A stretch of 35,586 nt of DNA from the IMG/VR virus record IMGVR_UViG_3300033066_002009, positions 72,961 through 108,546 of that record. One strand, 5' to 3'. Under the pieces are notes generated by a model, which was not told the DNA's origin, searched no databases, and worked only from the letters and a program-made list of their open reading frames with translations. A program made the translations under genes and the position numbers. Position 1 is the stretch's first letter. Each line of letters starts with the position of its first letter. Of the stretch, positions 5,642 through 33,752 are shown piece by piece. This DNA comes from a virus.

Positions 5642-6108
5642 CGATTGAACCTTGCAACGCTACGATATCCGGATCCGAGACTGTTGTACGCCGCTTCCAT
5701 GTTGTTCTGCGTCTTGATCCCGCGTACCAGCTCATCCCATTCTTCCTTGAGAAGGCGGGCAAGCTGGGCATACGCCGCTTGCTTGTCATCAATACCGATT
5801 GGCGCAATGTCTCCATCTTGATACGTCGCTTGGTTCCGGATCTGAAGGAACGTTTCCGACATCATCAAGAATCGACAAGTCCCAAGTAGGAGGACGTACT
5901 TGTTTGGAAACGTGGAGGCTGTAAAGCGCGTCTGAGGCGTAACGGCGTTGAACGCTTCCGCGGCCATCTCTGCCGCGAGGTTTAGCTCGCTGTCGGTGAA
6001 TTGAACGTTCGCCAGGAGGATGTTGTTCTCCGCCTTGTCACGGAGAAACATGCGCACTTGGTCATTGGTAACGACAACTGGAGTCGTTGGAGTGCCGGTG
6101 ACAGGCAT
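5638..6108 (-). CDS. Hypothetical protein (156 aa)
   Basis: ORF in the operon, overlap-coupled to both neighbours. Confidence 0.55.
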   Translation of the reverse strand: MPVTGTPTTPVVVTNDQVRMFLRDKAENNILLANVQFTDSELNLAAEMAAEAFNAVTPQTRFTASTFPNKYVLLLGTCRFLMMSETFLQIRNQATYQDGDIAPIGIDDKQAAYAQLARLLKEEWDELVRGIKTQNNMEAAYNSLGSGYRSVARFNR

Positions 6109-7592
6109 TACTTGGTCTCCTGATTCTGCTGTTCCATAAGTGCCCTGAATTGCTGAATCAGTGATTCCTTGTCAGCACCAAGTTGCGCCAGGTACTCATC
6201 AACTGATTCTCCTGGCTTCTTCCAGCCCCAATTCTCGAGCGTTCCTTTTGGCGGCCGAGTTGCTAGGTATCGTTCAATCTTAACAGACCGCTCGTTTTCC
6301 GGAAGGCTGTCGTGGCTCTTAAAACGGATTCCACGCCCCTCTACCTGCTTGATCTTCTCTTCGTTCCAGTGCGGCTCAAGCATCTGCATTAGCCGCGTTC
6401 CCTTGAGGTCTAGGCCCTCGCCGCCCGCCGATGAAAGTAGTAGCGCCCGTAGCTTGCCCGCGTTGTAGTCCTTTACGAGCTGATCCCGCTCACCGTGCGG
6501 CATCTGACCTGTAAATTCGCCATATGGGATATTTGCTTCCTGTAGTCGCCGCTTGTATGGATTGATTCCGGCGTCTAGGAAGTTCGAATAGATTACGGCC
6601 CGCATGTTCGGGTTGGTTTTGATGCCTTGCTGCAGGTGGTTGAACGCTTCTTGAATTTTCGGCTCCTCGGGTGAGCCTTCAGAAATGTAGGGCCCCGTGG
6701 AGTTCGCGCTTTGACGAGCGCCTGACAAAAATGCGTTCAACTGTTTTGCTTCTCGCTTAGACGGAGGTAGGCCGTGCTTGACCTTGTAAGCGACCCACCA
6801 AGGCGCTTTGTGAAAGAGCGTGTCGTAAACATCGAGCTGCTCCGCTGACATCGGAACTTTAACGTCTTCCCGCTCAACAGTTGGGAAGCCTTCCGTCGAT
6901 CCCGGGTGAAAGTCGACCCACTTGTCGAAGACAGACTTTAGCTCTTTGGTCCGCTTCGGATTGATCTCTGGCCGGACACCCGGGTCCGCGCCAAGCAGGG
7001 ATCCGATAAAGCCAGGGGAGACTGGTTTGTCTACAATGTAGCGGCTGCTAAATACCGCGGGATCTAGGGGTAGTACGTTATCGTGCGCGGCAAGGTCGAC
7101 GAGTGCCGAGATGTCGGAAGGGTGGTTGTAAAACGGTGACGCGGTAAGCAGCAGACGCTTTCCTGCTTGAGATTTTGCCAGCGCCTGAAAGGTGGCCGAC
7201 GACGGATCCCTGGCGCGGTGTGCTTCGTCAACAATCGTAAGAGGCGTCTTGAAGGGCTTACCTTTCATGGCAACATCTTGCATTGAACGTACGTTCAATT
7301 GCTGTCCGCCTCGAATGTGGTTGTCTTGTTCCTTCTTTAGATTGGCCTTGAGAGCCGCTGGAACGATGGCCGTACCTGCCATGCCCAGATCATCCTGGGC
7401 GCCAAGAGCGGTTAGTGTCTTCCCTGATCCTAGTCCGTGGACGACGACCAATCCGGGTTGATCTGGTTGGCGAATACGGTCAGAGACACGAAGCTGGTGA
7501 GGCTTGCGTTCTGTTGTTACGTCGGCAAGCTTGACTAGCCCTAAACGAGATAGGCTAGCCGCGTATCCGTCGTTGTACGAGGCGCGAAGCAT
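6108..7592 (-). CDS. SNF2/DEAH-box superfamily-2 ATPase/helicase with the shared N-terminal motif (494 aa)
   Basis: Walker A GLGSGKT, DEAH box VDEAHR, motif III LLLTASP, and helicase-C motifs SAGGEGLDL and QVEGRGIR. N-terminus is MLRASYNDGYAASLSRLGLVKLAD. Confidence 0.75.
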   Translation of the reverse strand: MLRASYNDGYAASLSRLGLVKLADVTTERKPHQLRVSDRIRQPDQPGLVVVHGLGSGKTLTALGAQDDLGMAGTAIVPAALKANLKKEQDNHIRGGQQLNVRSMQDVAMKGKPFKTPLTIVDEAHRARDPSSATFQALAKSQAGKRLLLTASPFYNHPSDISALVDLAAHDNVLPLDPAVFSSRYIVDKPVSPGFIGSLLGADPGVRPEINPKRTKELKSVFDKWVDFHPGSTEGFPTVEREDVKVPMSAEQLDVYDTLFHKAPWWVAYKVKHGLPPSKREAKQLNAFLSGARQSANSTGPYISEGSPEEPKIQEAFNHLQQGIKTNPNMRAVIYSNFLDAGINPYKRRLQEANIPYGEFTGQMPHGERDQLVKDYNAGKLRALLLSSAGGEGLDLKGTRLMQMLEPHWNEEKIKQVEGRGIRFKSHDSLPENERSVKIERYLATRPPKGTLENWGWKKPGESVDEYLAQLGADKESLIQQFRALMEQQNQETK

Positions 7593-21024: not shown

Positions 21025-21037
21025 TCCTCGTATCGTT

Positions 21038-21092
21038 CAAAAAACTAAAACGCCTCCGGCGCGTGGCCACCGGCCCTCGCGAACGGAGGCGT
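21038..21092 (-). terminator. Rho-independent terminator on the minus strand
   Basis: ACGCCTCCG and CGGAGGCGT form a 9-bp stem around a GC-rich loop, followed by TTTTAGTTTTTT. Only 13 nt separate it from the next start codon, so readthrough is likely. Confidence 0.55.
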
Positions 21093-21115
21093 CATTCAAC
21101 CTCTTGAGCCGTTGT

Positions 21116-22411
21116 TTAGGCGCGAGAGGCTGCAGCGTTTACGATTGCCCTAAGCCGGAGGCCTAGGTCACTCGCCTCCTTCTTGTCATCGTCCTTCTTG
21201 CACTCACAAGGCGACTTACCACACTTCTCGCACTTGTCGTCCTTCTTCTCGGAGTCCTTCTTCTCAGGCTCCTTCTCACTCATGTTGGCCATGAAGGCCG
21301 GGAGTCCGCCGTCCTCCGCCTTCTTCTGATTGGCCTTGGCGCCATCATAGCCCGAGTATCCACTGGTGTACTTCGGGGAGCCTGGAACGAACTCCGGATT
21401 TGCGTTAGCAGCGGTCTTCGACGCGATCTTCTGGTGGAGCCCGTGGATGTAGTGGGCCTTCTCAGCAACGTCTAGATCCATCATCGCCTGAATGTGACCG
21501 ATCTTCTCGTCTTCACCTAGACCATTGGGAAGATACGGCACGATTTCCCGGGCAGCCTTGCGGAACACTTCAACATATCCCGCGGCCTTGGCCGAATGCT
21601 GTGTCAACGAGTTGCTGCCGTCGACGGAGCGGCTGGGCCCGTTGGGCATCGCCATTTCCTTGCCCACGATGGCAGGGCCGGTGACGAGGCCCGGAATTGC
21701 GCCGGGTGCACCCTGATGCGGCAGAACCGCGTAACCAGCTGGGCGGGCAGCCAGGTCCATCTTGCCTTCGGCAGTGGTGGGCTCCTTGTTGCCCTTGTCG
21801 CCCCCTTCAATGTTCGAGCCCATTGCAATCTTGCGCAGGGCCTCAGCAAGTGAAGAGGTCTTGGACGCGTCAATCACCGTGTTATCGCCAGACGGCGAAT
21901 TAGCGGGTGCCGCAGGATGGGGCTCTTCCTTGCCGACGGCGCCAGGGCGCGTGTCGACCTCAGTCTTGCCCGCACCGCCAGCTCCGTTCTCGCCCTGTGC
22001 GGCGTAGCCGTCCGGACGTGCCTTCTCGTCCATCTTGCCTTCCGCGGTAGTGCGCTCGGTGTTGCCCTTGTCGCCGCCTTCATAGTTCGAGCCCTCAGCG
22101 AGCTTCATCAAGTGGAGCGCATGAACCTGCGCAACCTTTGACAGATCCTGCTGAGACGCAACCTTAGCGGTCGGGCCCGGCCGGTAGCCCTGCTGGGCCA
22201 GTTCCGCCGAAGCGTCGATAAGGTGCTCGGCGATCTTGGCCGTCACTTCACGTGACACACTGGCCGCCTGGAAGCCGTTCATTACATCAAAATCGACGTT
22301 GTCGGCGATGTAATCCGCGATCTTCGCGGCTGAATCTTCGTCGGGGTATGCAGCGTGCCCGGCCTGTACCAGCGCACCCTGAATTCCGCGAACGTATGCC
22401 TTCTTGAACAT
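21116..22411 (-). CDS. N-motif protein with a ~91-aa internal tandem duplication and a Lys/Cys-rich tail (about 431 aa from MFKKAY)
   Basis: The repeat units are GSNYEGGDKGNTERTTAEGKMD... and GSNIEGGDKGNKEPTTAEGKMD.... The C-terminus carries CEKCGKSPCECK. SD GGGAGA precedes the ATG at 22411. Confidence 0.6.
   Translation of the reverse strand: MFKKAYVRGIQGALVQAGHAAYPDEDSAAKIADYIADNVDFDVMNGFQAASVSREVTAKIAEHLIDASAELAQQGYRPGPTAKVASQQDLSKVAQVHALHLMKLAEGSNYEGGDKGNTERTTAEGKMDEKARPDGYAAQGENGAGGAGKTEVDTRPGAVGKEEPHPAAPANSPSGDNTVIDASKTSSLAEALRKIAMGSNIEGGDKGNKEPTTAEGKMDLAARPAGYAVLPHQGAPGAIPGLVTGPAIVGKEMAMPNGPSRSVDGSNSLTQHSAKAAGYVEVFRKAAREIVPYLPNGLGEDEKIGHIQAMMDLDVAEKAHYIHGLHQKIASKTAANANPEFVPGSPKYTSGYSGYDGAKANQKKAEDGGLPAFMANMSEKEPEKKDSEKKDDKCEKCGKSPCECKKDDDKKEASDLGLRLRAIVNAAASRA
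21646..22111. repeat. Intragenic tandem duplication of about 275 bp, two copies
   Basis: The DNA copies cccttgtcgcccccttcaatgttcgagcc (~21781) and cccttgtcgccgccttcatagttcgagcc (~22061) lie ~280 bp apart. Confidence 0.5.
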
Positions 22412-22492
22412 GTCGTATCTCCCGTTCAACCGCGGTTATGGTCGGTCAACGCGTTGCTGGAAATAATAGTCCAGTATCACGCGATGCACAAA

Positions 22493-22699
22493 TTATAGAA
22501 TAGGCTTCGCATTTGGGGCGATCGGAGCGCTCATAGCATGCACAGGATTCCCTGACGATCCTGCTGCGGCTCCTGGTGCCGGTGTCGGCCCCGCATTGAT
22601 GGATTTCATTGGAAATTGCCCTACGCCAATAGCAGCGCTTCCTAGTTTAAATCGAGCAATCTTGGCGTTCCAGCCGGTGATATACGCGTCTTGAATCAT
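22493..22699 (-). CDS. Small protein with the shared N-terminal motif (68 aa)
   Basis: N-terminus is MIQDAYITGWNAKIARFKLGSAA. TGATG overlap with the upstream gene. Confidence 0.45.
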   Translation of the reverse strand: MIQDAYITGWNAKIARFKLGSAAIGVGQFPMKSINAGPTPAPGAAAGSSGNPVHAMSAPIAPNAKPIL

Positions 22700-23346
22700 C
22701 AGTAAGAACTCACTTGGCCGTAGGGTTGATAAGGAATTTCTTCCTGGAGCGGCGCTTGCTGCGCCGCGAATTGTTCTTGAGCCAGTTGGGGCCGGGGCTT
22801 ACTGCCCAGGAGATGGCCAACACCGCGACCAAGGCGCTCTCCGGCTCCACCGCCAAAATGTGCTCCTACCATGCCCCCCATGCCGAACCCGACGAGGTTT
22901 CCGGCCTCCCGGCCTGCCGTGCTAAGAACATTCGTCATGGTGCCCTCGTTAGGGTCCCCTTGTCCGAGCGCCGCGCCACCAATTGCCATCGCAGGCAGCC
23001 CTACGCCTAGTCCCCGCCATAGCCATTTCCCTGCGCGTTGGTGGAGCTTGTCGGGTGGCATAAGTGACCCGTTAAGCATGTGCGGGGCGTTGTGGATCGT
23101 CGGCCATAGCGCTTCCCGTACAGCACCGCCGCGCCGGAATGCGTCGCCAGACACTAAATGAGAGATGCCTTCGGCCGGATTTCTCATGCGGCCGACCGCC
23201 ATGTTTATCCCGCCGTCCAAAAGCCCTTTCCCCCATCCCATAGCTTTTTGGCCAAGGGATGCCGCTGCCGCAGAGGGAGCGGCTGTCTTTACGCCATAGC
23301 GCGAAAGACTGCGGTTAAAAGAGGCGTTGTAAACGGTTTGTAGCAT
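22699..23346 (-). CDS. G/A-rich protein with the shared N-terminal motif (215 aa)
   Basis: N-terminus is MLQTVYNASFNRSLSRYGVKTAA. TAATG overlap with the beta'-C gene. Confidence 0.55.
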   Translation of the reverse strand: MLQTVYNASFNRSLSRYGVKTAAPSAAAASLGQKAMGWGKGLLDGGINMAVGRMRNPAEGISHLVSGDAFRRGGAVREALWPTIHNAPHMLNGSLMPPDKLHQRAGKWLWRGLGVGLPAMAIGGAALGQGDPNEGTMTNVLSTAGREAGNLVGFGMGGMVGAHFGGGAGERLGRGVGHLLGSKPRPQLAQEQFAAQQAPLQEEIPYQPYGQVSSY

Positions 23347-25151
23347 TAGTACGTTCCGGTAGGCCCTTCACCGAATTCTCCGCCAAACGCATATGCGGGA
23401 ACAGGGTTAGTTCCGTGAACCTTACTTGAATCAGAACGGTGAGCGCCCGCAAGAAGGCCCTCTCCGAGGAACCGGTGTGCGAGCCGCGCCATCCAGTCCG
23501 GATTTAGTAGCGGAGTGCGTTCAGCAGGGCGCATGAAGGGCTCTACAAGTGGCGCTTTGTGGGCAATGTGAACGCGCGTCACGTGATTCCGTTTTAAGTC
23601 GTCCTCAACGCTCTTAGTGATTCGGGTGCCCGCTGTGAAGTGGAGCACGTCATCCGCTAGGGTTTCCCCGAGAGCGTCCTCAAGTGGCAACTCTTTTCGC
23701 GAGCCGGCCAAGAACGTTTTATATTTATTGTAGTCGATGATGTCACCGCGCGTGAGCCCATTATCCTCGTCATCCCCTGTATCTACTACACGGACGTGGT
23801 TCAGAATCGATTTAGCCATTGTTTCAAAGTGGCGCTTGTCGATCTCAATTCCCTGGCTTTTGTAGATGTTGAACATTGCATCGGTGAGGTACTTGCGGCC
23901 CGCACCAAGGCCTTTGTATTGAACTACTTCATTTGGGCGAGGGATTCCATCGGAAAGGGCGTCACCGGACTCTACTTTCTGCCCCATTGATACAACGACA
24001 TCTAGGCTTGGCTCGATATAGTGTCTCTCACTGTCAACCCAAACGTAGTGTCCGCCTTGCGGTGCGGTTTCAATCTTCGTTACGGTTCCGTCGTGGAAGG
24101 CCAAGGCCGCCGCATGAAGAAATGACTTCGGAATCTGAAGCATCTGCTCCACACCCTTAACGCCTTCAACGGTCTTTTCTTTTTTAAGCTTGGCAAGATC
24201 CTTCGCGTGCTTGGCGCCTAGTGCGAACTGCGTCAAGGGTTCCGCCATGGACTGCGCGGCTCGGACACCAATATTGGTACCAATCGCGTGCAGGCGACCA
24301 TACGGATCTAGCCCTTCGCACTTCTGACAAAGGCCGTCATTCATCTCACATGTCATTGGCGAGCGAACGATCACGTCACCGCCAAGTGCTTTCAATTCAG
24401 AGGCAATATGTGGAGTAACCATGGTGCCCGCTTTGACGGTTCCCTTGTCATGTGCGGTGTACCGGTCGATGATGTGCGGGTCGTCCGTGTGCATCGCAAG
24501 GCCGTTGCGTGTCCCGCAATCGTTTTGGACGATCAACTTGTCAGCCATGTTGTTGACCAGGATCTTTCCGAGGTCTCCCGGTTCCGAGACGGCTGTTCGC
24601 GTCTTAATTTCGTTTACTCGAGCCTCTGTCATGGCGGCCCACGCCTCTGAAGGGCGAAGACCCTCCGCATAGCTTCGAATAATCGGCCACGGAATAACTT
24701 GGTCTTTGTCGCCAGACGCGAGTACGGGAGCAGCAACACTTCGCATCAACTGCGGAAAATTTCCTCGGCCGCCGGATCGGGCCATCTCACCCATCGAGCC
24801 TGGATGGCGCTTTGTCAACTCAATCATCGGGGCGAGGCCTTTGATCAAAGCCTGTTGCTTGTCGACTACAGACTTTGCCTTATGAAAATCCGCTAGAATT
24901 GGCTTCATAATGGCGTCACGCTGCTCATACATTGGCGTGATGTCATCGATACCCACAGAGATCCCCTCCAACGTGGAGATTTCGTCGCCTAGGCGCTTGA
25001 GGGAAGAGACGATCCCTGGGTACTCATCAGGCTTGGTTCGGGCCAAGTCGACAAGGATGTCCCGCATGCGGCCCTTCGTCAGGGGGCCCTTCCCGTCATA
25101 TTCTTTTGGGAGAACGTCGTAGACAAGGCGCTCCCCGAGAGAAGTCGCCAT
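23346..25151 (-). CDS. RNA polymerase beta' subunit, C-terminal half (rpoC2/A''-like split subunit, 601 aa)
   Basis: The segment RSPMTCEMNDGLCQKCEG...HAIGTNIGVRAAQSMAEPLTQFALGAKH matches the bacterial beta' region around the trigger loop (VRSxxTCE..GxCxKCYG..GxxxGxIAAQSIGEPGTQ). Confidence 0.85.
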   Translation of the reverse strand: MATSLGERLVYDVLPKEYDGKGPLTKGRMRDILVDLARTKPDEYPGIVSSLKRLGDEISTLEGISVGIDDITPMYEQRDAIMKPILADFHKAKSVVDKQQALIKGLAPMIELTKRHPGSMGEMARSGGRGNFPQLMRSVAAPVLASGDKDQVIPWPIIRSYAEGLRPSEAWAAMTEARVNEIKTRTAVSEPGDLGKILVNNMADKLIVQNDCGTRNGLAMHTDDPHIIDRYTAHDKGTVKAGTMVTPHIASELKALGGDVIVRSPMTCEMNDGLCQKCEGLDPYGRLHAIGTNIGVRAAQSMAEPLTQFALGAKHAKDLAKLKKEKTVEGVKGVEQMLQIPKSFLHAAALAFHDGTVTKIETAPQGGHYVWVDSERHYIEPSLDVVVSMGQKVESGDALSDGIPRPNEVVQYKGLGAGRKYLTDAMFNIYKSQGIEIDKRHFETMAKSILNHVRVVDTGDDEDNGLTRGDIIDYNKYKTFLAGSRKELPLEDALGETLADDVLHFTAGTRITKSVEDDLKRNHVTRVHIAHKAPLVEPFMRPAERTPLLNPDWMARLAHRFLGEGLLAGAHRSDSSKVHGTNPVPAYAFGGEFGEGPTGTY

Positions 25152-25153
25152 GG

Positions 25154-25540
25154 TTAACCGAACATCCCCCCGAGGTCATGCTTCATGCGCGCTGTGTTGA
25201 TGTAGGGCATGTCGTTTTGGTCCGGGGCGGTGGCGCGGCCAAGCATGCCCGCGCCAAGAAGGGCGCCACCGCCTAGGGCCATGCTGGGCAATAGACCTTT
25301 TGCGGCCCCCATCGCCTGGCTACGGCCAAGCGCTCTCACGCCTTCTTGAACACCTGGGACTCCCGACGAGTGCATCATCCCGTTGATTCCGGTGCCAAGA
25401 TCGCGCATGTGGCTGCCTTGACCCCCTAGGAAACGACCAACAGCGCTGCCCATGTTTCCGAGGGAAAACGCTTCCTTCTTGATGCCGTAGCGGTGTAGCG
25501 CCGCGGTCATACCAACTTCGTAGGCTTGCTTGATGGTCAT
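25154..25540 (-). CDS. Small protein with the shared N-terminal motif (about 128 aa from MTIKQAYEV)
   Basis: N-terminus is MTIKQAYEVGMTAALHRYGIKKEAF. TAATG overlap with the upstream ORF. The longer track ORF (from 25630) would overlap its neighbour by 90 nt. Confidence 0.5.
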   Translation of the reverse strand: MTIKQAYEVGMTAALHRYGIKKEAFSLGNMGSAVGRFLGGQGSHMRDLGTGINGMMHSSGVPGVQEGVRALGRSQAMGAAKGLLPSMALGGGALLGAGMLGRATAPDQNDMPYINTARMKHDLGGMFG

Positions 25541-25965
25541 TAGAACACAGCTCCATTGGATGCGCCGCCTGCCGGATTTCCTAGGACGTCTCCAGAGTTT
25601 CCGGCGGCAGGGTGGGTAGCAGGGCCCCATGACGTTGAGCGGTCAAGGGGATCTTTCTTCGCGCTTGGGTCGATAGTTCCTGGCGGCTGGGGCAGCGACT
25701 GAAGAAACGCGGCCAACGCTTCCGCTGGAAGGTGATCGTCTGCCTGTGGCTCTAACGGAGCGAGCCCATGTTCCGCGCTCTTTCCGGCACCTTTTTCAGA
25801 GACGTTCCGTAGGGTTCCGTCCATCCCATGGAATCCGCGAAATGGCCGAATCTTCAGACGGACTTCGTCTGACGCCGCAGTCTTTACCCCAAAACGGGAA
25901 AGAGCAGCCCACGCCGCAACCTTGTAGATGTGGGTGATGGAGCAATTATTTGGCATGTACGGCAC
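25540..25965 (-). CDS. Small protein with the shared N-terminal motif (141 aa)
   Basis: Carries ...ITHIYKVAAWAALSRFGVKTAA. It lies 8 nt downstream of the RNAP fusion gene. Confidence 0.5.
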   Translation of the reverse strand: MPYMPNNCSITHIYKVAAWAALSRFGVKTAASDEVRLKIRPFRGFHGMDGTLRNVSEKGAGKSAEHGLAPLEPQADDHLPAEALAAFLQSLPQPPGTIDPSAKKDPLDRSTSWGPATHPAAGNSGDVLGNPAGGASNGAVF

Positions 25966-25972
25966 GTTCTAA

Positions 25973-28900
25973 TTATAGTTCGCTCTTCTTGTTAATGTCG
26001 ATCGGGTCGGAGAGGTTGATTTCTCCTCGGTGGTACGCCGCAAGAGCATGGCCCTGTGATTCAAAGCTCTTTGAAGCCATGGTGCCCGCAGGCTGTGTTG
26101 CACGGTGAAGCCCGATAACTGCTTCCATGTCGGGGGCCACGTTAAGTGGGTCTGACTTCTTCTCGCTAAAAATAAGCTTTGATAGCGTCATGTTCTTGAC
26201 GTCTTCAATGCCCTTGAGGGTTACAGGCGCGTGCACTTGAATTGCGTCACCATCGTAGTCCGCGTTCATCCCGCGCTCTGCGAACGGATTCAGGCGAATG
26301 GTCTTGCCCGACGTCAACTTGGGATACGCGCCAATTACTCCGAACCGATGTAGTGTAGGCGCGCGGTTAACGACGACCGGGCGCTCTTTCGTTTCGATCA
26401 GAAGCTCTTCTCGCGCCAAGGGGTTCTTTTCCTCGACCATGCGCTGTGCGTCAAGAGCAGGGTAGCCCTTCCGTACAAGACGCCCGATCAAGAACTTAGA
26501 GTACATCTTCCAGAGCATGTCCTCCGGGATTCCGATCTCATCCATGTCTAGTGTCGGGTCTGGGGCGATCGTTGCGCGCCCCGATACGTCCTGTTGCCGC
26601 ATCATAATTTTCGACTGGAAGAACCCGTTCTTTGGCCGAGTACCGTTAATCTGCATCAAGAAGCCTTGAGCGTTTCGCTTCTTCGCTTTGGGGCTCTGCG
26701 GCTCTTCCGTTCCAAACACGGACCCAACGGCCTTGTAGACGTGCATACGAATTGGTGCTAGCTCTGTGTTAGGCAGTCCAGCTTCGTCTAGTTCTTGAAG
26801 CTTCTTATTCGCCAAGAAGGCGTCTGTGTAGAGCAGATTCACGGGCTGTGTCAGTAGTCGCCCATCCTTCAGGGGCACAATCTGCCGCATGATAGGCGGG
26901 ATTACCGGAACCTTACTGAGGATGTACGCCTTATCAGGCGTTAACCCTTGGGACTTTAGCGCCGTCAGATACTTGATCTGCTTTACGGCACTGTCGAGGC
27001 TAGGGCCTTTCAACGTCTTACTCTGAGCCTTCAGCTCTTCGATTTTCTTGTCCATGTCGATTTTAGACAAGGCGTCTTTGAAATAAGCCCCTCCCTGCTG
27101 GGAATGGAAATCCTCGAATTGCCGCTGTGTTAGGCTCAATAGACGCCGAACAGGCTCCTCAAATACCGGGTTGACGATCGGCTCGTGAAGCTGCATGTGT
27201 GCCCACTTCGTCCCGGTCAAACCTCCGGTCAATACCGGGTCGAAGAGACCGCCCTTTTCAGGCATCAGGTTTTTAGCCTTGATGTGGTAGGCATTTTCTA
27301 CAGGACCAGATGACATCTTTTCAATGTCAGCGTCCGTCATCGGTCCCAGCGTCAACCGTTGACCGTCTTTGTTCACTTTGACGCCGGCACCTTCCAGCAT
27401 TGTCAGGAATTTGTCATACGCGAATGTCGTTTTAGGCGACGGCACCGGCAGCCCCAGCTGAATAGCTCGCCAGAATTCGTCGTTCTTTTGGCTCTTAATT
27501 GACGCGGCTTCCCGCAAAACGTTTCTCGCGTTGTGTGCGACAAGTGCATCAAACTCCATCTTACCGATGCCCTTCGCACCCTCGTCGCCGCCTCGGCTAG
27601 GTTGCTGGTTAATGTCGTATTTTTCGGGACCGTGCGCAGACCAGTTAGTGTAGGCGCTCTTGAACAGCTTAAGAATGTAAGAACGGCCCACGAATACACC
27701 GGGGATGCTTTTCCCCGTAATCGGGTCGTAGACTGTCTCCTTGTCCTTAAGGCCGTGTTCCTTGAGCAGCCCCTTTACCCATTTCACATTGTCGCGGTCT
27801 TCAAAATTATCGATGGCGATAGGCTTGCCGGTTTTTTCTGCAACCTTGCCCAGTGCCGCTTCGAGAACCTGCGCCGGGTTTACACGGCTAATGATGCCGG
27901 CAGAGGTGAAGAGCACGTCAATGGGATTGCCCTTTTCATCCTTCACCATCTGCGCGTCAGGTACGATTTTTGCGATTACTCCCTTGTTGCCGAAGCGTCC
28001 TGAGAGCTTGTCACCGACATTGATGGTTTCCCATGTCTTAACCGTTACGGAGATGACGTGAGGCGTCTTGACCACGTCAATTACTTCTCCAGGTGTTTCA
28101 TGGTGCCAGTCTTCAACCTCTTCCCTGTAAGGCGTCACAAGAGAGCGCGACAGCTTACCGAGCAACGCCGCGTCTCCGGTGATCTGGCCTTTCCGCGCAG
28201 CCACAATAACGGGGTCACCGGGCTCGATCTTTGTTCCCGGCTTAACAACGCCTTCGGAGTCCAGATTGTCATACTGACGAGCCTTGTAGCGCATTCCGAA
28301 GTACGTACGGTGAAGCTCTTTGTCGTTTAGGATGTCGTTATCCCGCCGCATATCAATACGATACATGTGCTCGGAAACGAGTTTATCTGCAGCACCTTGT
28401 GAAACGACAATTCCGTCGTTGGAGTTAAGCCCCCGATAGGCCATATATCCAACGGACATATTCTTGCCGAGGCACAGGGTATCGTTCTTGGTGAAGTTAG
28501 ACTCCGCCAGGGGTTGACCCGCTTTTACATCTTCACCCGCCCGCACCTTGATGGTGTTGTGCAGGTAGGTCTTCGCGGCGAGCGGGAAGTGGTCGTCATA
28601 GTGGAGCTTGATCAGCCCGCTATCCGCCGCTGCATATTTATCTACGTGATCGTTGTAGAACCACTCCCCGTCTCGATCGGAAGATGCCTTCGTGGCTTTC
28701 GGACGGATGTAAATCCAGTCATCGTCAATTCGCTCGATAGTCCCGTCCACTGGAGATGTAGGCACCACCTTTAGCGCCATTTCCTGCTCTACCGTGGTCC
28801 CCGGCCACCAGGACTTGACCTGTACGTGCGGGGGCTCCCGGTGAACCAGCGGCAGCGCCTGCGACTGGTGCTTGGAAGCCATGACGATGCGGTTACCCTG

Positions 28901-30445
28901 CATGCCGTTGAGGAACGGCAAGAGGTTCGTCGTTGGGCCGAAGAGATTGGCTACATGGGGAACCTGATAGTCAACTTCATGCGGGCCGACGTCTACGATC
29001 TCTCCGTCTTTCATCGCGTGAACAACAGGGAGGCCCGGGGCGCCATTTCCGACCTTTTCCGTCGGAAAAGCCACTACTTTTTCAGCGACCTCGTTTGGCC
29101 GCAAGTATTCAATTTCACCGGTCTTCACGTTTCGAAGAGGGGTGTATAGATTTCCCTTATCGTCTCGCCGGGTTGCCAATGCAGTTCGAATATCGATGCC
29201 CGTCTTGAAGCTCTCTGGCGTTCTTGACGGATCCATGATTGCGAAGTGCGTAGGGTGCAGCTGCCGCGCTTCCATTGGAACGGCACGCTCACTTGAAATA
29301 CCGCCCTCACCCATGGGAGTGACCTTGCACATCTGGTCCATCAATTCCATGGGGTTGATCTGCTCGGGCTTCTGAGCACGCTTTGAAGTAGACAGGAACG
29401 TGATTACTCCGCGCGTAAACGGCGAGGCTGGTACTGCCTTTCTCATGTCACCACGAGACGCCTCCAGCTTAATGCCGATCTTCGTCTTCAGGGCCTTGGC
29501 ATCGAGGCCAATACGCTCTTTGATAGAGTCGTCTACACCGTGGAAGGTCTTGAACTCGAGGCTATCTCTATCGTCAGTGTCGATGGCATTACGGTGAACA
29601 TCTAGCAATTTCTTGGCCGCGATCAATAAAGCCATCGGTGTAACGTGGTCAAACGCCTGCCCCAACGTGCGCTTCGTGACGTCGGGGTCCATCCGCGTCA
29701 TTTCATAGTAACGATGAAGCTGCCGAACGCGTTCTTCGTGAGTAGCAGCAGGGGCTGCACCTGCCGGCTGAATCCAGTAACCCAGCTTGTCGTACAGTTT
29801 TTGTACGTGGCGCTCCGTATTTTTTTCCGTTGCTACCTTATTTACGTCAGCCACCTGGCTACCCCACTGAGTAGAAATGTCTTGGTGGGGGACGCCAAGC
29901 GCCCGCAACACAGGGTACAACGGGATCTTTGTAGTCTTGTGTTCCAGCCGCAGCACGCCCTCTTCCGGATCCATTGCAATTCGGAAGTTGTCACCGCGCG
30001 CCAGGTTGAACGCCGCTTCTAGATCTTCATTGCCGCGCTTTCGTGTGTAGACGCCCGGCTTTGTACGAATCTGATTTGCGATGTTGTATTCGTTGCCGTC
30101 AATGATGAACGTATGCCGCGGTGTAAAGTACGGCAGGTGCATCAAGGTAAAGTTCTTTGCCTGCGATACAACAGCGCCCTGTGTGTCCTTTACGAGGATG
30201 TCTCCGACCACACGTTCGTGGAGCGTCCGAGCTTCAAGGATTGCGCGCTTTTGGTCGCGGGACGAAAACGACTCCTCCTGGACGCGCGGGTTCGTCAATT
30301 CCACCGTGAAGTTTCTCGACTTCATAGGGAAAGCAGCTTGTACGCCCTCTAGGGCCTTGCGTCGGATGTGCGCTCGGTGGTCTGTGGCGTCCATAAGGAC
30401 TGGTCGGATGCCGGCGGACTCCGCGTCACGTTCTGAAATTGGCAT
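25973..30445 (-). CDS. Fused RNA polymerase subunit (1490 aa): a beta-like N-terminal ~950 aa joined to the N-terminal ~540 aa of beta'
   Basis: Beta-like motifs are FIIDGNEYNIANQIRTKPGVY and GRFGNKGVIAKIVPD...NPAQVLEAALGK. Beta'-N motifs are AHMQLHEPIVNPVF, VPVIPPIMRQIVPLKDGR, GRATIAPDP, NRAPTLHRFGV and NADYDGDAIQVHAPV. The beta' N-terminal zinc-finger cysteines are not visible. Confidence 0.9.
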   Translation of the reverse strand: MPISERDAESAGIRPVLMDATDHRAHIRRKALEGVQAAFPMKSRNFTVELTNPRVQEESFSSRDQKRAILEARTLHERVVGDILVKDTQGAVVSQAKNFTLMHLPYFTPRHTFIIDGNEYNIANQIRTKPGVYTRKRGNEDLEAAFNLARGDNFRIAMDPEEGVLRLEHKTTKIPLYPVLRALGVPHQDISTQWGSQVADVNKVATEKNTERHVQKLYDKLGYWIQPAGAAPAATHEERVRQLHRYYEMTRMDPDVTKRTLGQAFDHVTPMALLIAAKKLLDVHRNAIDTDDRDSLEFKTFHGVDDSIKERIGLDAKALKTKIGIKLEASRGDMRKAVPASPFTRGVITFLSTSKRAQKPEQINPMELMDQMCKVTPMGEGGISSERAVPMEARQLHPTHFAIMDPSRTPESFKTGIDIRTALATRRDDKGNLYTPLRNVKTGEIEYLRPNEVAEKVVAFPTEKVGNGAPGLPVVHAMKDGEIVDVGPHEVDYQVPHVANLFGPTTNLLPFLNGMQGNRIVMASKHQSQALPLVHREPPHVQVKSWWPGTTVEQEMALKVVPTSPVDGTIERIDDDWIYIRPKATKASSDRDGEWFYNDHVDKYAAADSGLIKLHYDDHFPLAAKTYLHNTIKVRAGEDVKAGQPLAESNFTKNDTLCLGKNMSVGYMAYRGLNSNDGIVVSQGAADKLVSEHMYRIDMRRDNDILNDKELHRTYFGMRYKARQYDNLDSEGVVKPGTKIEPGDPVIVAARKGQITGDAALLGKLSRSLVTPYREEVEDWHHETPGEVIDVVKTPHVISVTVKTWETINVGDKLSGRFGNKGVIAKIVPDAQMVKDEKGNPIDVLFTSAGIISRVNPAQVLEAALGKVAEKTGKPIAIDNFEDRDNVKWVKGLLKEHGLKDKETVYDPITGKSIPGVFVGRSYILKLFKSAYTNWSAHGPEKYDINQQPSRGGDEGAKGIGKMEFDALVAHNARNVLREAASIKSQKNDEFWRAIQLGLPVPSPKTTFAYDKFLTMLEGAGVKVNKDGQRLTLGPMTDADIEKMSSGPVENAYHIKAKNLMPEKGGLFDPVLTGGLTGTKWAHMQLHEPIVNPVFEEPVRRLLSLTQRQFEDFHSQQGGAYFKDALSKIDMDKKIEELKAQSKTLKGPSLDSAVKQIKYLTALKSQGLTPDKAYILSKVPVIPPIMRQIVPLKDGRLLTQPVNLLYTDAFLANKKLQELDEAGLPNTELAPIRMHVYKAVGSVFGTEEPQSPKAKKRNAQGFLMQINGTRPKNGFFQSKIMMRQQDVSGRATIAPDPTLDMDEIGIPEDMLWKMYSKFLIGRLVRKGYPALDAQRMVEEKNPLAREELLIETKERPVVVNRAPTLHRFGVIGAYPKLTSGKTIRLNPFAERGMNADYDGDAIQVHAPVTLKGIEDVKNMTLSKLIFSEKKSDPLNVAPDMEAVIGLHRATQPAGTMASKSFESQGHALAAYHRGEINLSDPIDINKKSEL

Positions 30446-30465
30446 GCGTAAGTAATAACACGTAG

Positions 30466-30480
30466 TTGGTAAAAGAGAAT
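30466..30480 (+). promoter_or_regulatory. Promoter-like motif copy A: TTGGTAAAAGAGAAT
   Basis: One of four plus-strand copies of GGTAAAAGA, all intergenic. It lies 21 nt from the divergent RNAP start codon. Confidence 0.45.
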
Positions 30481-30885
30481 GGAGTCGTCGCTGTCGTGCA
30501 CGCTACACCTGTCTTTCACTCGAGGTAAACCCTCGAGGGACGTGGTGGCGGCCGGCGGGGAACAGGAGGTGCGCCTTAGGAAGGTTTGACGGTGCGCCGC
30601 CACTCCTGGGATTGCTGATCCCAGGAGGGCGGTGAGCGGAATGAATCTCGGCCCCTTCCGCGGCCTGTAGTCCACCGTCAGGAGGGGCGTTAAGACGGAC
30701 CGAGAGCGCCCATGAAAACTGAACGCGAACAACAGGCCCCTCAGGGAGGGGTCAAGAGGGCACCGCGAAGATGGTGCCCAGGGCCAACAGCGCCCTCGCC
30801 TTGTGCAGCACAGGGGTCCATCCCAAAACACCCAAGCGGCCCCCTAGAGGGCTCAGACCCACGGCTAGGTCAGGGCCGCTTTTTT
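30481..30885 (+). ncRNA. Candidate structured non-coding RNA of about 400 nt, class unknown
   Basis: Bracketed by motif A and an intrinsic terminator. Perfect hairpins include CTCGAGG/CCTCGAG, CTCCTGGGA/TCCCAGGAG and GGGCACC/GGTGCCC. Stops occur in all frames, and the only 59-codon ORF has poor codon usage and no properly spaced SD. Confidence 0.4.
30835..30885 (+). terminator. Rho-independent terminator on the plus strand
   Basis: AGCGGCCC and GGGCCGCT form an 8-bp stem with an inner CCTAG/CTAGG pairing, followed by TTTTTT. Confidence 0.6.
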
Positions 30886-30898
30886 GGGTAAAAGAGGG
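30884..30898 (+). promoter_or_regulatory. Promoter-like motif copy B: TTGGGTAAAAGAGGG
   Basis: Lies immediately after the terminator and 24 nt before the SD/ATG of a small TM-protein gene. Confidence 0.45.
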
Positions 30899-30918
30899 AA
30901 ACTACATGGAGGCCACCC

Positions 30919-31074
30919 ATGCGCGTGCAGCTCTGGAAGAAGAAACCACAGCACCCGGCTGTTTCGCTGATCACGAGCTTCCTGCTGCTGGCAGCGGTGC
31001 TCGTGATCGCGAAAGAAGTGGGGGAGACCCTTCGACATGCGCTTGATGTCTGGTCCGAAGAGGAGCAGCAGTGA
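30919..31074 (+). CDS. Small single-pass membrane protein (51 aa)
   Basis: Found by hand translation: MRVQLWKKKPQHPAVSLITSFLLLAAVLVIAKEVGETLRHALDVWSEEEQQ. SD GGAGG lies 6 nt upstream. GTGA overlap with the next gene. Its frame and start differ from the track ORF 30771-31046. Confidence 0.5.
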   Translation: MRVQLWKKKPQHPAVSLITSFLLLAAVLVIAKEVGETLRHALDVWSEEEQQ

Positions 31075-31385: not shown

Positions 31386-31406
31386 CCCGCCGTTCACCTG
31401 CTAGAG

Positions 31407-31441
31407 GCACTCCGCGGTGGGGAGGGGGAGTGCTTCTTTTT
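31407..31441. terminator. Intrinsic terminator between convergent genes
   Basis: GCACTCC, a 12-nt loop, GGAGTGC, then TTCTTTTTA. The T-tract is on the plus strand. Confidence 0.6.
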
Positions 31442-31865
31442 AGCGTCGACGTCCCCTTGGTGGGGCATCTGCATCGCGCTCTTCTTCTGCCAGCCGGGCT
31501 TCTCGTTCAGGATTTCTACGCCGGGTCAGCCATGTTAGGAGGATTCGATACTCTCCCGTGAGGGGTGTGAAGCTCCTTTCTTCCGCCCGAGGCAGCGCGT
31601 CTCCTCGAAGGCACTGGTCCTGAACAGCGTTGTAAGCCTCTTCATCACCCGGCAAGGTGAACACCTGACAGTGGTGTGAATAGTCCCATTCAACAGGTGT
31701 TGCCTTGCCTTCGACGTCCATGTCTACAAGACGGTGATTCCCGAGTGGCGGTTGGCCCCCTGTGCCAAAGGCGCTTCCAGCGTCGGCTCCTCGCGCGCCG
31801 CTGAAAAGATTTGGCATGCTGTTGACCTTCTCGAGCAGCTCAGTGAAGGATTCGTCCTTTGCCAT
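31440..31865 (-). CDS. Hypothetical protein (141 aa)
   Basis: AAGGA SD upstream of the ATG. Ordinary codon usage. Confidence 0.5.
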   Translation of the reverse strand: MAKDESFTELLEKVNSMPNLFSGARGADAGSAFGTGGQPPLGNHRLVDMDVEGKATPVEWDYSHHCQVFTLPGDEEAYNAVQDQCLRGDALPRAEERSFTPLTGEYRILLTWLTRRRNPEREARLAEEERDADAPPRGRRR

Positions 31866-31884
31866 CTTTATGAGTCCTTATCCA

Positions 31885-33684
31885 TTACATCGGGCCCGCA
31901 GCCGCAGGTGCTGCACCAGCTTCCCCGCCACCGCCAGTAGGGTCACCACTCATTTCACTTCGCCCCGCTGTCAGAGCCGCGTGGTTTTGTTGCGTCTGCA
32001 TATCCTTCATTCGATCAACAACAACGGCATACATTACCTTGTCCTCGACTTCAAGAGCGTGCAGCTGCGATTGCCTTGACCCGGGATCGAGGCCCATCAT
32101 TTGCTGAACGATGCCATCGGCTTGACCGATAACGGCTTGCTGGTCGTATTGAAGGGTGTTCTGTCCCATGGCCGCTTGCGCTTGTACGCGTTGTGCAAGC
32201 GTGTTCTGCAATTTAGCAGTTTCCACCTGAAGCTCTTGCTGGAAACGAACTTCATCGAGAGCCTCTTGCTTACGCTTCTCCCGCTCTTCCTGCAAATCAA
32301 TATCAAAGGTATCGGCGATTGTGGTGTTTGAAACAAACGGTCCGGTCGGGCTTGTCTGATTAAGCTGCAGCAACAAGGTCTTCTGCTGAACGTCGTCGAT
32401 GAACTTGAACGGCGCCAAGTCGACTTCGACCTCACCCCATCCCAGCAGTCGGCCAACTTTGTCAGTAATCCACTGAAGCATTTCCACAAGTTCGCTCGTG
32501 TGGGGCAGAAGCTGGTTCTCAAGGATACGCAATGTGATGGCGGACCCGGTGAAAGACAGCCCGCCATAGAGGAACTCCTTAGGAATTCCCAGAGCCGCAA
32601 TGATATTGTCCTCGGCCATCTGGATTTCCTGCTGCACCATCAGGGCCCGAGCTTGACCGCCGAGATGCGTAACCTCTGTGGGGATTGGAGACCACATCAT
32701 GTGCAACGGGTCTCGACGCCACTTCTTGACGTTCTGCTTCATTTCGCTAGCCCAGCGCTCTAGCGAAATGGAGATGACAGGATCACCGTTAGGGTTCCCC
32801 TGCTTCGGTGAGATAATTCGGAATGGCACGACATAGTCAAGGCCAATAGCCTCGTTGGCCTTACGCAACACAGCAACATAGAAGAAGAGCTTAATTGTAG
32901 AGGCGAGTGGCGGGAATCCCCACTGCGCTTCGATGCCGGCGGGAGCATCCATCTTCAGGTGGAAGATCTGGCCCTCGGCAAACTCGAAGGTCTTGTCGTC
33001 CTTGATGGTCTTTAGAAACTCAACAGGAAGGGTGTTAATGAGGTGCTTGTTGCCCTTATTGATGCGTTCCTTCATTTCCTTCGGAACGGTGTAGTAGTAA
33101 ATGCTGTGTCCCGTCACCGGATTGTAATCAATATCCATCAGCTTCGGATCCCATCGGATAATGGCGACCTTGTCAGGGCGAACCAGGGGACGGTCAATAA
33201 TGTCCGCATCCGTGCTGATTGTTTCCCGTGTACAGGCTGGACACCGATACCGGAATTCCATCTTTTTCAACTTGAACTTGTAATCAAGTGTCGCAATGTT
33301 GGCGAGGCTCTTGCAATCACCGCATCGCAGGAATCGCACGAACGGTGAATAGATGGAATAGAAGCCGTTTCCGTATACAAACTTGTCGATAGCTGCGCGA
33401 ATAAGATGGCGCTTCGTTTTCAGGCGTTTGTCGTGAAGAGTCTTGTAGCGGTCCTTCAGCGCCTCATTAGTCGTTGTGTAGACGATGTTGGTCACTGGGT
33501 AGATCGCAAACTTCTGCAACGCCGCGTAAATCTGTGACGAGTTGAAGTACAGGTACTCGCACAAACGGAATAGGTCTTTAAGCTTTCTCGGCGCGAACGC
33601 AGTTAGAAAGTCAAAAAGGGGAGAGCCGTGAGATGTTGAGTTGCGACCCATAAGGTCGCCAAGTTCAGGATCGAATTCAGACAT
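31885..33684 (-). CDS. Large protein with a CxxC-x25-CxxC zinc ribbon and a Q/A-rich coiled-coil tail (599 aa). A portal-like role is possible but unproven.
   Basis: Contains RCGDCKS...YRCPACTRE. No Walker A motif, so it is not a large terminase. It is an isolated leftward unit among rightward early genes. Confidence 0.55.
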   Translation of the reverse strand: MSEFDPELGDLMGRNSTSHGSPLFDFLTAFAPRKLKDLFRLCEYLYFNSSQIYAALQKFAIYPVTNIVYTTTNEALKDRYKTLHDKRLKTKRHLIRAAIDKFVYGNGFYSIYSPFVRFLRCGDCKSLANIATLDYKFKLKKMEFRYRCPACTRETISTDADIIDRPLVRPDKVAIIRWDPKLMDIDYNPVTGHSIYYYTVPKEMKERINKGNKHLINTLPVEFLKTIKDDKTFEFAEGQIFHLKMDAPAGIEAQWGFPPLASTIKLFFYVAVLRKANEAIGLDYVVPFRIISPKQGNPNGDPVISISLERWASEMKQNVKKWRRDPLHMMWSPIPTEVTHLGGQARALMVQQEIQMAEDNIIAALGIPKEFLYGGLSFTGSAITLRILENQLLPHTSELVEMLQWITDKVGRLLGWGEVEVDLAPFKFIDDVQQKTLLLQLNQTSPTGPFVSNTTIADTFDIDLQEEREKRKQEALDEVRFQQELQVETAKLQNTLAQRVQAQAAMGQNTLQYDQQAVIGQADGIVQQMMGLDPGSRQSQLHALEVEDKVMYAVVVDRMKDMQTQQNHAALTAGRSEMSGDPTGGGGEAGAAPAAAGPM

Positions 33685-33711
33685 GCGGCGACGTTAGCAT
33701 AGTCTTTAAGC

Positions 33712-33727: not shown

Positions 33728-33752
33728 AGACAGCCGTGTAGGAGGGCAATTG

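Follow-up and report, generated by a model that had tools for sequence, protein, structure and literature searches.

A stretch of 35,586 nucleotides (nt) from a virus genome (IMG/VR record IMGVR_UViG_3300033066_002009, positions 72,961 to 108,546; hereafter the window, in whose own numbering all positions are given) carries two genes that are identified, by their domain, motif and structural matches, as coding for a bacterial-type two-barrel RNA polymerase (RNAP) catalytic core made of two polypeptides. The larger protein, of 1490 amino acids (aa), joins a complete beta subunit to the N-terminal part of beta' (beta'N), and the remainder of beta' (beta'C) is specified by a separate gene. Phage-encoded RNAPs of bacterial type were known before; what is new is this fused-and-split layout, which has apparently not been described. 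An initial annotation, made from the sequence without database searches, had proposed such an architecture, and both its observation and its main interpretation are confirmed, apart from corrections to the subunit sizes and to the zinc sites. In the reading that we favor (probability about 0.6), the two-chain core would be held together by a tether that stands in for alpha and omega, directed by phage sigma factors and delivered in the capsid, and this one enzyme would serve both early and later genes.

Architecture of the two RNAP proteins

Both open reading frames (ORFs) lie where the initial annotation had placed them, and every motif quoted there is present (Table 1). On the 1490-aa ORF, Pfam detects beta domains between aa 154 and 952 (RNA_pol_Rpb2_6 at aa 644-952, 1.2e-44, together with Rpb2_3 and Rpb2_2) followed by beta' domains between aa 1130 and 1420 (Rpb1_1, 3.4e-12; Rpb1_2, 5e-21, aa 1352-1420), and the 601-aa ORF matches Rpb1_5 (2.9e-18). 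A sequence search of the PDB retrieved bacterial beta (1e-66) and bacterial beta' (~1e-45 for the N-terminal part and 2e-34 for the C-terminal part). An AlphaFold model of aa 946-1490, with a predicted local distance difference test (pLDDT) score of 71, was matched by Foldseek to bacterial beta' (~1e-28), cyanobacterial gamma and plastid RpoC1 (E ~1e-26 to 1e-29 over all of these). The profile searches thus place both ORFs in the RNAP beta and beta' families, and the NADYDGD segment falls in a beta' fold, by Rpb1_2 and by Foldseek, rather than in an unrelated one.

When mapped through the family profiles, the beta module is complete, covering residues 53-1338 of the 1342 of Escherichia coli beta, and it is without the lineage-specific insertions SI1 (~228-423) and SI2 (~933-1050, E. 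coli numbering). Its GRFGNKGV sequence aligns with GRHGNKGV of E. coli, the beta active-site lysine motif GRxGNKG. The junction with beta' lies near aa 1029/1030 and has no linker, the sequence GVKVNKDGQ being followed directly by RLTLGPMTDADIEKMS, which corresponds to E. coli beta' ~20-34. The beta'N part spans E. coli beta' ~20-550 and ends at ~552, and in the alignments it carries the clamp helices, the lid/rudder region and the Mg-binding NADYDGD loop. The separate beta'C begins at ~570 and maps to E. coli beta' 572-941 and 1152-1320; it contains the bridge helix, the second zinc site, an uninterrupted trigger loop (no SI3), a degenerate region H and the C-terminal clamp/jaw region.

These boundaries give ~1030 aa for beta and ~1060 aa for beta', in place of the ~950 and ~1140 aa first estimated. 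The total of 2091 aa compares with 2749 aa in E. coli (24% smaller), and the smallest solved bacterial subunits have 1100-1119 aa (beta) and 1161-1199 aa (beta'), the phage subunits being ~7-10% below them. To call the enzyme minimal is therefore fair, but 'far smaller than bacterial RNAP', as it had been described, overstates the difference. By profile mapping and direct reading of the sequence, the only losses relative to E. coli are SI1, SI2, SI3 and the N-terminal zinc ribbon of beta'.

The loss of that ribbon follows from the cysteines. There are two in the whole fused protein (373 and 658), neither of them within beta'N, so that the ribbon formed in E. coli by C70/C72/C85/C88 is deleted; a ten-residue loop takes its place and ~38 E. 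coli beta' residues, with the four cysteines, are gone. The cysteines of beta'C number exactly four (212, 268, 275 and 278) and align with C814/C888/C895/C898 of E. coli beta'. An absence of the beta' zinc-finger cysteines, as initially suggested, consequently holds for the N-terminal ribbon but not for the second site, which is intact.

The catalytic motifs are invariant in 19-25 relatives of 35-69% identity. In a 19-sequence alignment, D1396, Y1397, D1398, G1399 and D1400 of the Mg-binding loop do not vary, and neither do L762, G763 and L769 of the flap-tip-helix equivalent or K1155, K1158 and Y1159 of the clamp-helix equivalent. Judged by these alignments, the catalytic core is intact and strongly conserved. 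At aa 306-315 of beta'C (nt 24207-24236) the sequence of the trigger loop is LTQFALGAKH, as against LTMRTFH in E. coli: the catalytic His is kept and the Met-Arg of the bacterial motif is gone, while relatives in which the whole polymerase is a single chain (see below) retain MRTFH or a similar sequence. In a hand alignment of aa 349-378, three equivalents of rifampicin-pocket residues differ from E. coli (F514 to K, H526 to Q and S531 to T), and because of these changes insensitivity to rifampicin is expected.

Table 1. RNAP features and neighboring genes of the window. Protein positions of RNAP features refer to the 1490-aa (fused) or 601-aa (beta'C) ORF.
Feature	Position (nt)	Strand	Length or protein position	Remarks
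Fused RNAP large-subunit gene	25973..30445	minus	1490 aa	ATG start; ORF with Pfam Rpb2 and Rpb1 domains
Beta part	~27359-30445	minus	fused, ~aa 1-1029	
FIIDGNEY	30086-30109	minus	fused, aa 113-120	
Beta flap-tip-helix equivalent, DAALLGKLSRSL	28139..28174	minus	fused, aa 758-769	Aligns with E. coli beta EEKLLRAIFGEKA
Beta active-site motif, GRFGNKGVIAKI	27965-28000	minus	fused, aa 816-827	Aligns with E. coli beta GRHGNKGVISKI
Beta'N part	25976-27358	minus	fused, ~aa 1030-1490 (~460 aa)	Joined directly to beta
Site of the deleted beta' N-terminal zinc ribbon, GLFDPVLTGGLTGTKW	27203..27250	minus	fused, aa 1066-1081	
AHMQLHEPIVNPVF	27161-27202	minus	fused, aa 1082-1095	
Beta' clamp-helix equivalent, AVKQIKYLTALK	26954..26989	minus	fused, aa 1153-1164	Aligns with E. 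coli beta' TKRIKLLEAF
NRAPTLHR	26345-26368	minus	fused, aa 1360-1367	
NADYDGD, beta' catalytic Mg-binding loop	26246-26266	minus	fused, aa 1394-1400	Inside the Pfam Rpb1_2 match
Beta'C gene	23346..25151	minus	601 aa	ATG start; Pfam Rpb1_5, family profile and PDB matches
Second beta' zinc site, NDCGT (C212) and MTCEMNDGLCQKCEG (C268, C275, C278)	24312..24524	minus	beta'C	
RSPMTCE	24345-24365	minus	beta'C, aa 263-269	
AAQSMAEP	24237-24260	minus	beta'C, aa 298-305	
s1, small conserved ORF	25540..25965	minus	141 aa (GTG start) or 138 aa (ATG at 25956)	Between the two RNAP genes
s2, Gly-rich paralogue of s1	25154..25540	minus	~128 aa from MTIKQAY	Conserved in 15 close loci
p215, third Gly-rich paralogue	22699..23346	minus		N-terminal motif SLSRYGVKTAA; directly after beta'C
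Conserved ORF between portal and RNAP genes	31440..31865	minus	141 aa	No Pfam or PHROG match
Portal protein gene	31885..33684	minus	599 aa	29-31% identity over ~545 aa to Arash gp204 portal and the Vibrio phage D69 homologue
Homologue of Arash 'structural protein'	18097-21024			
Head-protease-like protein	12423-14207			PHROG match
Capsid-like protein	9177-10097			
SNF2-family helicase, Arash Gp217 homologue	6108..7592	minus	494 aa	Pfam SNF2-rel_dom and Helicase_C; 36% identity to gp217
Second SNF2-family helicase	34486-35586	plus		Runs off the window end; adjoins portal

Relatives and distribution

The genome to which the window belongs is that of an Arash-like phage, with the RNAP genes inside its head-morphogenesis module, which begins with the portal gene. 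Cultured relatives are Salmonella phage Arash, with gp206 and gp216 as the corresponding proteins, and Vibrio phages D69, D148 and D181. The fused protein aligns to Arash gp206 and to its D69 counterpart in a single alignment over 97-98% of its length (34-35% identity); beta'C shares 30% identity with Arash gp216 (97% query coverage) and also matches its Vibrio counterparts. In Vibrio phages D148 and D181 the fused protein aligns in two pieces, since a homing endonuclease interrupts the gene. This interrupted gene, at ~144150-149570 of D181 and D148 (OZ196140, OZ196545), is annotated as several 'hypothetical proteins', and it is one ORF in D69. In the phage database, a single RNAP locus was found for each of these cultured genomes, that of Arash and those of the Vibrio phages. 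That the polymerase is phage-encoded, as first proposed, is borne out by the portal, head-protease-like and capsid-like genes that flank it and by the synteny with Arash and D69.

An alignment-based scan of IMG/VR found 315 loci that encode relatives (a single fused-protein query had given no match). In a collection of 5.8 billion proteins, each of the 120 best protein clusters has a single protein of ~1450-1500 aa, longer where an insertion is present, to which Pfam assigns beta as well as beta'N domains. The contigs concerned are up to 197 kb long, and related contigs that are near-complete reach ~150-200 kb. Wherever a fetched locus extended far enough, beta'C was located downstream of the fused gene on the same strand, 555-5729 bp past it, and was never adjacent or fused. 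The layout is a hallmark of a large, mostly uncultivated clade and not an oddity of one contig.

Split and single-chain forms

A HMMER search of 1.84 billion representatives with beta'N only was used to sample the family, and the best 150 matches (E < 1e-80) were classed by BLAST against both window proteins. The beta-beta'N class accounts for 94 of the 150, and 28 are complete single chains of beta, beta'N and beta'C (~2,000-2,090 aa). Two more are C-terminal pieces with beta'N-beta'C, and 26 are fragments. Among the 150 classed representatives there was no evidence of unfused beta'N forms; one apparently stand-alone beta'N (P0136) was set aside as a contig-end fragment of the fused ORF, as it has no upstream stop codon. 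P0182 (2077 aa) exemplifies the single chain, with Rpb2 and Rpb1_2 to Rpb1_5 domains in one protein. Its locus (L092, ENA contig k141_2074676, 1556-1765 and 6103-12336) has many small same-strand genes upstream, one with a Pfam Acb5 match, and no portal gene within 6 kb upstream. Single-chain lineages may lack the placement of RNAP in the head module.

The single chains are continuous through the point where the window has a stop and a start (INKKSEL before the stop, MATSLGERL from the new start), and the loop of the E. coli protein is 13 residues longer there. As the single chains run on across the break, the alignment marks the split as a clean site of gene fission or fusion within a surface loop. 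This break is a permissive loop, also used by cyanobacteria, plastids and jumbo phages. The family is monophyletic relative to bacterial and Rhizobium-phage beta' in 50/50 bootstrap replicates. In the observed neighbor-joining tree, single-chain forms make up a basal grade; split forms, those of the window, of Arash and of the Vibrio phages included, form essentially one clade. That tree has a single-chain Fitch root state, as do only 24/40 bootstrap replicates, with the opposite in 14/40, and the split forms are strictly monophyletic in only 3/50; fission and fusion would both be compatible with these bootstraps. With both split and single-chain versions in the one monophyletic family, a gene fission or fusion appears to have been caught in mid-course.

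Comparison with other RNAPs

No description of a phage beta-beta'N fusion with a separate beta'C was found by full-text searches of the literature or in PMC7598289, PMC7824862, PMC13282480 and PMC10585845. In the last of these, on Arash (OQ632216, proposed 'Arashvirus'), Gp206 is annotated as 'beta' and Gp216 as 'beta'', with no mention of a fusion or split. The Arash proteins, a 1525-aa beta-beta'N and a 606-aa beta'C, are colinear with ours over 97-98%, and the order of portal, small ORF, RNAP and structural genes is shared; the difference is that nine genes, some on the opposite strand, separate the RNAP genes of Arash, whereas there are two in the window.

The mReC viruses (Weinheimer & Aylward 2020, PMC7481178) are tailed phages of ~40-300 kb with a compact beta (~900-1020 aa) and beta' (~1000-1390 aa) and a NADxDGD motif, found with a filter that asked for two matches of at least 800 aa each. 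Their supplementary table lists distinct, unsplit beta and beta' genes, whereas in the window beta is fused and beta'C has 601 aa. An assignment of the present family to mReC was therefore rejected as to architecture, the published gene layout setting the two apart. The cultured Cobetia phage Carin-5 (PV155638, 154 kb) has an mReC-like layout, with genes for a sigma factor (196 aa), beta' (1083 aa) and beta (927 aa) at 1041-7866 of the fetched locus (L097), and Rhizobium phage RHph_Y65, with an unsplit beta' of 1127 aa, shows the mReC layout too. On the family beta'N profile, Carin-5 scores 70 bits, RHph_Y65 156 bits and bacterial beta' 228-236 bits.

The RNAPs of phiKZ and AR9 are likewise phage two-barrel enzymes without alpha or omega and with a split beta', and one of the two enzymes of those phages is packaged in the virion. 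Their beta' is split just past the catalytic barrel, at the cyanobacterial-type position (PMC7598289). Their beta, however, is unfused and divided into two or three polypeptides, there are two paralogous sets per genome and no sigma-70 homologues, whereas in the window beta is one uninterrupted module and sigma genes are conserved in its relatives. These jumbo-phage RNAPs are also far more divergent from bacterial RNAP than the window enzyme; in PHROG comparisons, jumbo-type families score 57-89 bits, and the best matches, the unannotated ~1200-aa families phrog_24349 and phrog_25354, score 160-217 bits. The crAss-like (gp66 type) and YonO enzymes are two-barrel phage RNAPs in few chains as well, the crAss-like one being virion-delivered, but they are too divergent to be detected by beta/beta' sequence models (PMC7481178), while the window proteins have strong Pfam, NCBIfam and PDB matches to bacterial beta and beta'. 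The distinction from phiKZ/AR9 and from crAss-like polymerases drawn in the initial annotation is upheld by these matches, by the unsplit beta and by the fact that Arash and its Vibrio relatives have a single RNAP locus each.

Among cellular enzymes, the nearest parallel to the split is that of cyanobacterial and plastid RpoC1 (gamma) and RpoC2. The suggested likeness holds for its position, which is the same to within ~10-20 residues: the gap falls at E. coli beta' ~552-570, and aa 25 of beta'C aligns with residue 15 of Synechocystis RpoC2. In those systems, however, beta is separate, alpha and omega are present and RpoC2 has a very large insertion. The cyanobacterial NCBIfam models TIGR02387 and TIGR02388 score 137 bits (cut-off 976) and 95 bits (cut-off 467) and are outscored by generic rpoC (201 vs 137 and 177 vs 95 bits), and for this reason common descent of the split with rpoC1/rpoC2 is not supported by the profile comparisons. 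The scores for the general bacterial models are also below their equivalog thresholds, with 281 bits for TIGR02013 (rpoB, cut-off 801) and 201 (fused ORF) and 177 bits (beta'C) for TIGR02386 (rpoC, cut-off 963); bacterial models outscore archaeal ones. The rpoB-rpoC fusions of Helicobacter and Wolbachia (PRK09603 and PRK14844) resemble the window protein in joining the beta C-terminus to the beta' N-terminus but are ~2,840-2,890 aa long, contain a complete beta' and use alpha and omega in the cell, whereas beta'C is separate here. The window protein scores 309 and 254 bits on these two models, whose cut-offs are 5372 and 4632. Closer analogues of the cellular fusions are the phage relatives with one chain of ~2,050 aa (e.g. 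P0182), yet their score of 539 bits is again far below the cut-off. The window thus represents a third organization of phage multisubunit RNAP, beside the fragmented, sigma-less type of phiKZ/AR9 and the two separate subunits of mReC.

Assembly, promoter recognition and delivery

No alpha or omega domain was detected by Pfam in the ORFs of the window (~36 tested), and phmmer searches with the E. coli alpha and omega proteins against the six-frame translated window, the whole Arash genome and 80 related loci gave nothing below E = 0.39. This accords with the initial annotation, which had seen neither subunit. The C-terminus of beta and the N-terminus of beta' adjoin in the clamp, and both natural and engineered rpoBC fusions are functional, the tethering of beta to beta' aiding assembly. 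Since no alpha or omega is found, the termini adjoin and such fusions work, it is suggested that the covalent beta-beta' tether would substitute for the alpha-dimer assembly platform and for omega.

In ~43 related loci, close relatives (61-66% identity) among them, a gene 8-9.5 kb upstream of that for RNAP has a product with sigma-70 regions 2 and 4, scoring above the Pfam cut-offs; in Arash it is gp196. Pfam and PHROGs detect no sigma factor among the ~36 tested ORFs of the window, which ends 5.1 kb upstream of the RNAP gene, and given the distance seen in relatives the sigma gene of this phage is expected just beyond the window end. Arash has two sigma factors, and for the one from its virions, Gp10, no homologue could be detected in either the window or the fetched flanks, bar one weak match. 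In bacteria, the flap-tip helix docks sigma region 4 and the clamp helices dock sigma region 2. We infer that their equivalents dock sigma here too, so that promoters would be recognized by phage sigma-70-family factors seated on the retained flap-tip and clamp helices. With one set of RNAP genes per genome in Arash and the Vibrio phages, and two sigma factors in Arash, sigma switching is the simplest reading: the single enzyme would probably transcribe later genes as well, with a second phage sigma.

In the virion proteome of Arash, Gp206 gave 3516 spectra, the highest number of all proteins, and Gp216, the helicase Gp217 and the sigma factor Gp10 gave 1210, 1148 and 467 (PMC10585845). Per residue, as computed from the table of that paper, this amounts to 2.3 for Gp206 and 2.0 for Gp216, with Gp217 similar to them (2.0-2.4 for the three proteins), and to 1.5 for the portal protein. 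Among the 80 loci, the portal gene is upstream of RNAP on the same strand in 78, and homologues of two structural genes are downstream in 45-50; the constant position of RNAP between portal and head genes fits packaging. The Arash gene gp217 comes directly after that for beta'C, and its product was found in the virion preparations in an amount similar to Gp216. Jumbo phages also show a linkage of a Swi2/Snf2 helicase with phage RNAP genes (PMC7824862), and the homologue at 6108-7592 is a possible RNAP-associated ATPase. By analogy with Arash, a capsid-delivered, sigma-dependent enzyme is likely: the polymerase, possibly with sigma and the SNF2 ATPase, would be packaged in the capsid, injected, and would transcribe the early genes independently of the host.

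Several points weigh against this scheme. The search for alpha and omega relied on Pfam for the ORFs of the window and on phmmer with single sequences elsewhere, which a very divergent or structurally analogous subunit would escape, and three small conserved proteins (s1, s2 and p215) share the operon with the RNAP genes. The trigger loop is without its canonical Arg, so that kinetics may differ. The window itself holds no sigma gene, its presence in this phage being extrapolated from synteny, and a phage sigma might serve host RNAP instead of the phage enzyme. Virion association comes from one proteomic study of one relative, with an RNAP ~35% identical to that of the window, and the 116 proteins of that Arash proteome include ribonucleotide reductases and ligases; its authors themselves bring up carry-over as an alternative (PMC10585845).

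If carry-over of an abundant protein accounts for the polymerase in Arash particles, the enzyme might be a non-virion RNAP, produced in the course of infection for middle and late genes only, the early genes being read by host RNAP. The clearly non-structural enzymes just mentioned would be in keeping with this, as would the different genomic context of single-chain relatives such as P0182, but we consider it unlikely in view of the top spectral count of Gp206, the spectra per residue of Gp206 and Gp216, which exceed those of portal, and the placement of the RNAP genes, with portal on one side and head genes on the other, in 78 of the 80 loci. The failure to find phage alpha and omega could also mean that the enzyme is not minimal but a hybrid, in which the two phage chains are mounted on the host alpha dimer and omega, perhaps with host sigma. 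Its beta and beta' modules are nearer to bacterial subunits than to other phage RNAPs (228-236 against 70-156 bits), so that alpha-binding surfaces could persist. Yet the hosts of cultured members are diverse (Salmonella and Vibrio), its chains share only ~25% identity with the subunits of bacteria, phiKZ/AR9-type enzymes are generally known to work without alpha and omega, and the tether would itself aid assembly; the hybrid therefore seems to us decidedly improbable.

It might also be that the phage core is independent of sigma, the phage sigma factors redirecting host RNAP in the manner of T4 gp55 and the core relying on an unrelated factor comparable to phiKZ gp68 or AR9 gp226. Jumbo-phage multisubunit RNAPs do use non-sigma factors (PMC7598289), the deleted zinc ribbon lies near the RNA-exit and sigma-linker region, and the small conserved proteins co-transcribed with the RNAP genes (s1, s2, p215) could supply such a factor. 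The flap-tip and clamp-helix residues are nevertheless invariant across the family, sigma was detected together with RNAP in the Arash virion preparations, and in the more distantly related Carin-5 a sigma gene stands directly before the beta'-beta genes, all of which makes sigma independence quite unlikely. An artefact, be it host rpoB-rpoC DNA in a chimeric contig, a merging frameshift or a decaying pseudogene with insertions, has in its favor only the generic risk of metagenomic assembly and is ruled out for practical purposes by the conservation across loci, clusters and cultured phages. The same fused ORF and beta'C recur in cultured phages (in one of them with peptides of both), at 315 IMG/VR loci and in >100 independent clusters; the catalytic residues are invariant, the NCBIfam scores are far below the bacterial equivalog cut-offs, and the flanking genes are phage structural genes.

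The favored two-chain, tethered and capsid-delivered enzyme allows a bolder version, put forward tentatively and with more doubt than confidence. It would be the first sigma-70-dependent virion RNAP, an alpha/omega-free core (one chain in sister lineages) injected with sigma and the SNF2 ATPase, its tether replacing the alpha platform and a switch between two sigma factors running the whole transcription program. If so, it would be the smallest natural sigma-dependent RNAP, and a tractable one since Arash and the Vibrio phages are in culture. Virion delivery with sigma, if true, would also be a new strategy of early infection and would offer structural work and synthetic biology a compact, promoter-specific and possibly rifampicin-insensitive RNAP. 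As a bacterial-like enzyme that keeps the sigma-docking elements, has neither alpha, omega nor the zinc ribbon and has its largest subunits tethered, the family amounts to a natural test of assembly that would show the minimal needs of a sigma-dependent RNAP. The cultured members (Arash and Vibrio D69, D148 and D181) make both virion delivery and alpha-independent assembly directly testable.

Operon structure and gene neighborhood

Many genes in succession lie on the minus strand of the window. The start of s1 is 8-17 nt past the stop of the fused gene, the start of s2 overlaps the s1 stop (TAATG), s2 ends 2 nt before the beta'C start, and the start of p215 overlaps the beta'C stop (again TAATG). 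These abutting and overlapping codons point to a single translationally coupled operon of the fused gene, s1, s2, beta'C and p215. Homologues of s1 were found by jackhmmer at the same position and strand in ~50 related loci, and p215 has 47 six-frame homologues downstream of beta'C in relatives. The three small Gly-rich proteins could be RNAP accessory subunits or capsid-internal proteins. They have in common an N-terminal helix motif, Y..G...AL.R(F/Y)G(V/I)K.AA, to which s1 adds a C-terminal D(R/K)...WG. An s1-like tail also forms the C-terminus of a ~490-540-aa protein encoded between the RNAP genes of some relatives (L022, 14349-15935; L019, L036 and L037), in which motifs of a putative LigD-like primase-polymerase and 3'-phosphoesterase (HYDLRLV...HSWALPK) were read by eye.

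By tblastn against Arash and D69, the gene order of portal, small ORF, fused RNAP, beta'C, structural protein, head-protease-like and capsid-like protein is shared, and a metagenome contig at NCBI, its genes called independently, agrees with it and also has genes for a sigma-70 factor and for an SNF2 helicase upstream. The 141-aa ORF between portal and RNAP has 76 six-frame homologues in the equivalent position, including Vibrio phage D69_0260. The second SNF2-family helicase next to portal is seen in relatives as well (L053:5714-7654, L091:5794-7749).

Between the 141-aa ORF and the start codon of the fused gene there is ~1 kb (30446-31439) with doubtful ORFs only: two small opposite-strand genes (one gene call) and then ~480 nt with no convincing ORF and with GC-rich hairpins. 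In one relative (L091), the equivalents of the 141-aa ORF and of the RNAP gene are 17 nt apart. No Shine-Dalgarno-like sequence was seen ahead of the RNAP ATG. A match to 11/12 positions of the sigma-70 consensus (TCGACA-18-TATAAT) overlaps the stop codon with which the fused gene ends, shortly before s1 (25972-26001, minus strand); in a promoter and terminator scan of 20000-35586, counts were not above those of shuffled controls. Rfam and tRNA scans of the window gave no match.

Insertions in homologues

Some homologues carry an additional domain in one variable loop of the beta module, at a point corresponding to aa ~589 of the fused ORF (nt ~28680). It is an inorganic pyrophosphatase (Pfam InPase, 1.6e-32 to 2.6e-52) in some members and a GNAT acetyltransferase in others, the homologues with either insert being P0105-P0116 and P0017/P0022/P0029/P0036/P0075; an RNAP with a built-in pyrophosphatase would be unusual. 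Three further homologues contain inteins of ~340-500 aa, at window aa ~412 (P0030), ~815 (P0002) and ~1400 (P0104), that is, exactly in the three catalytic motifs DPxRTPES, GDKLSGRFGNKG and NADYDGD. Their boundaries are marked by an N-terminal Cys and by a C-terminal GN/S or SN/T junction, and the inteins of P0104 and of P0002, a protein 80% identical to that of the window, include LAGLIDADG endonuclease domains.

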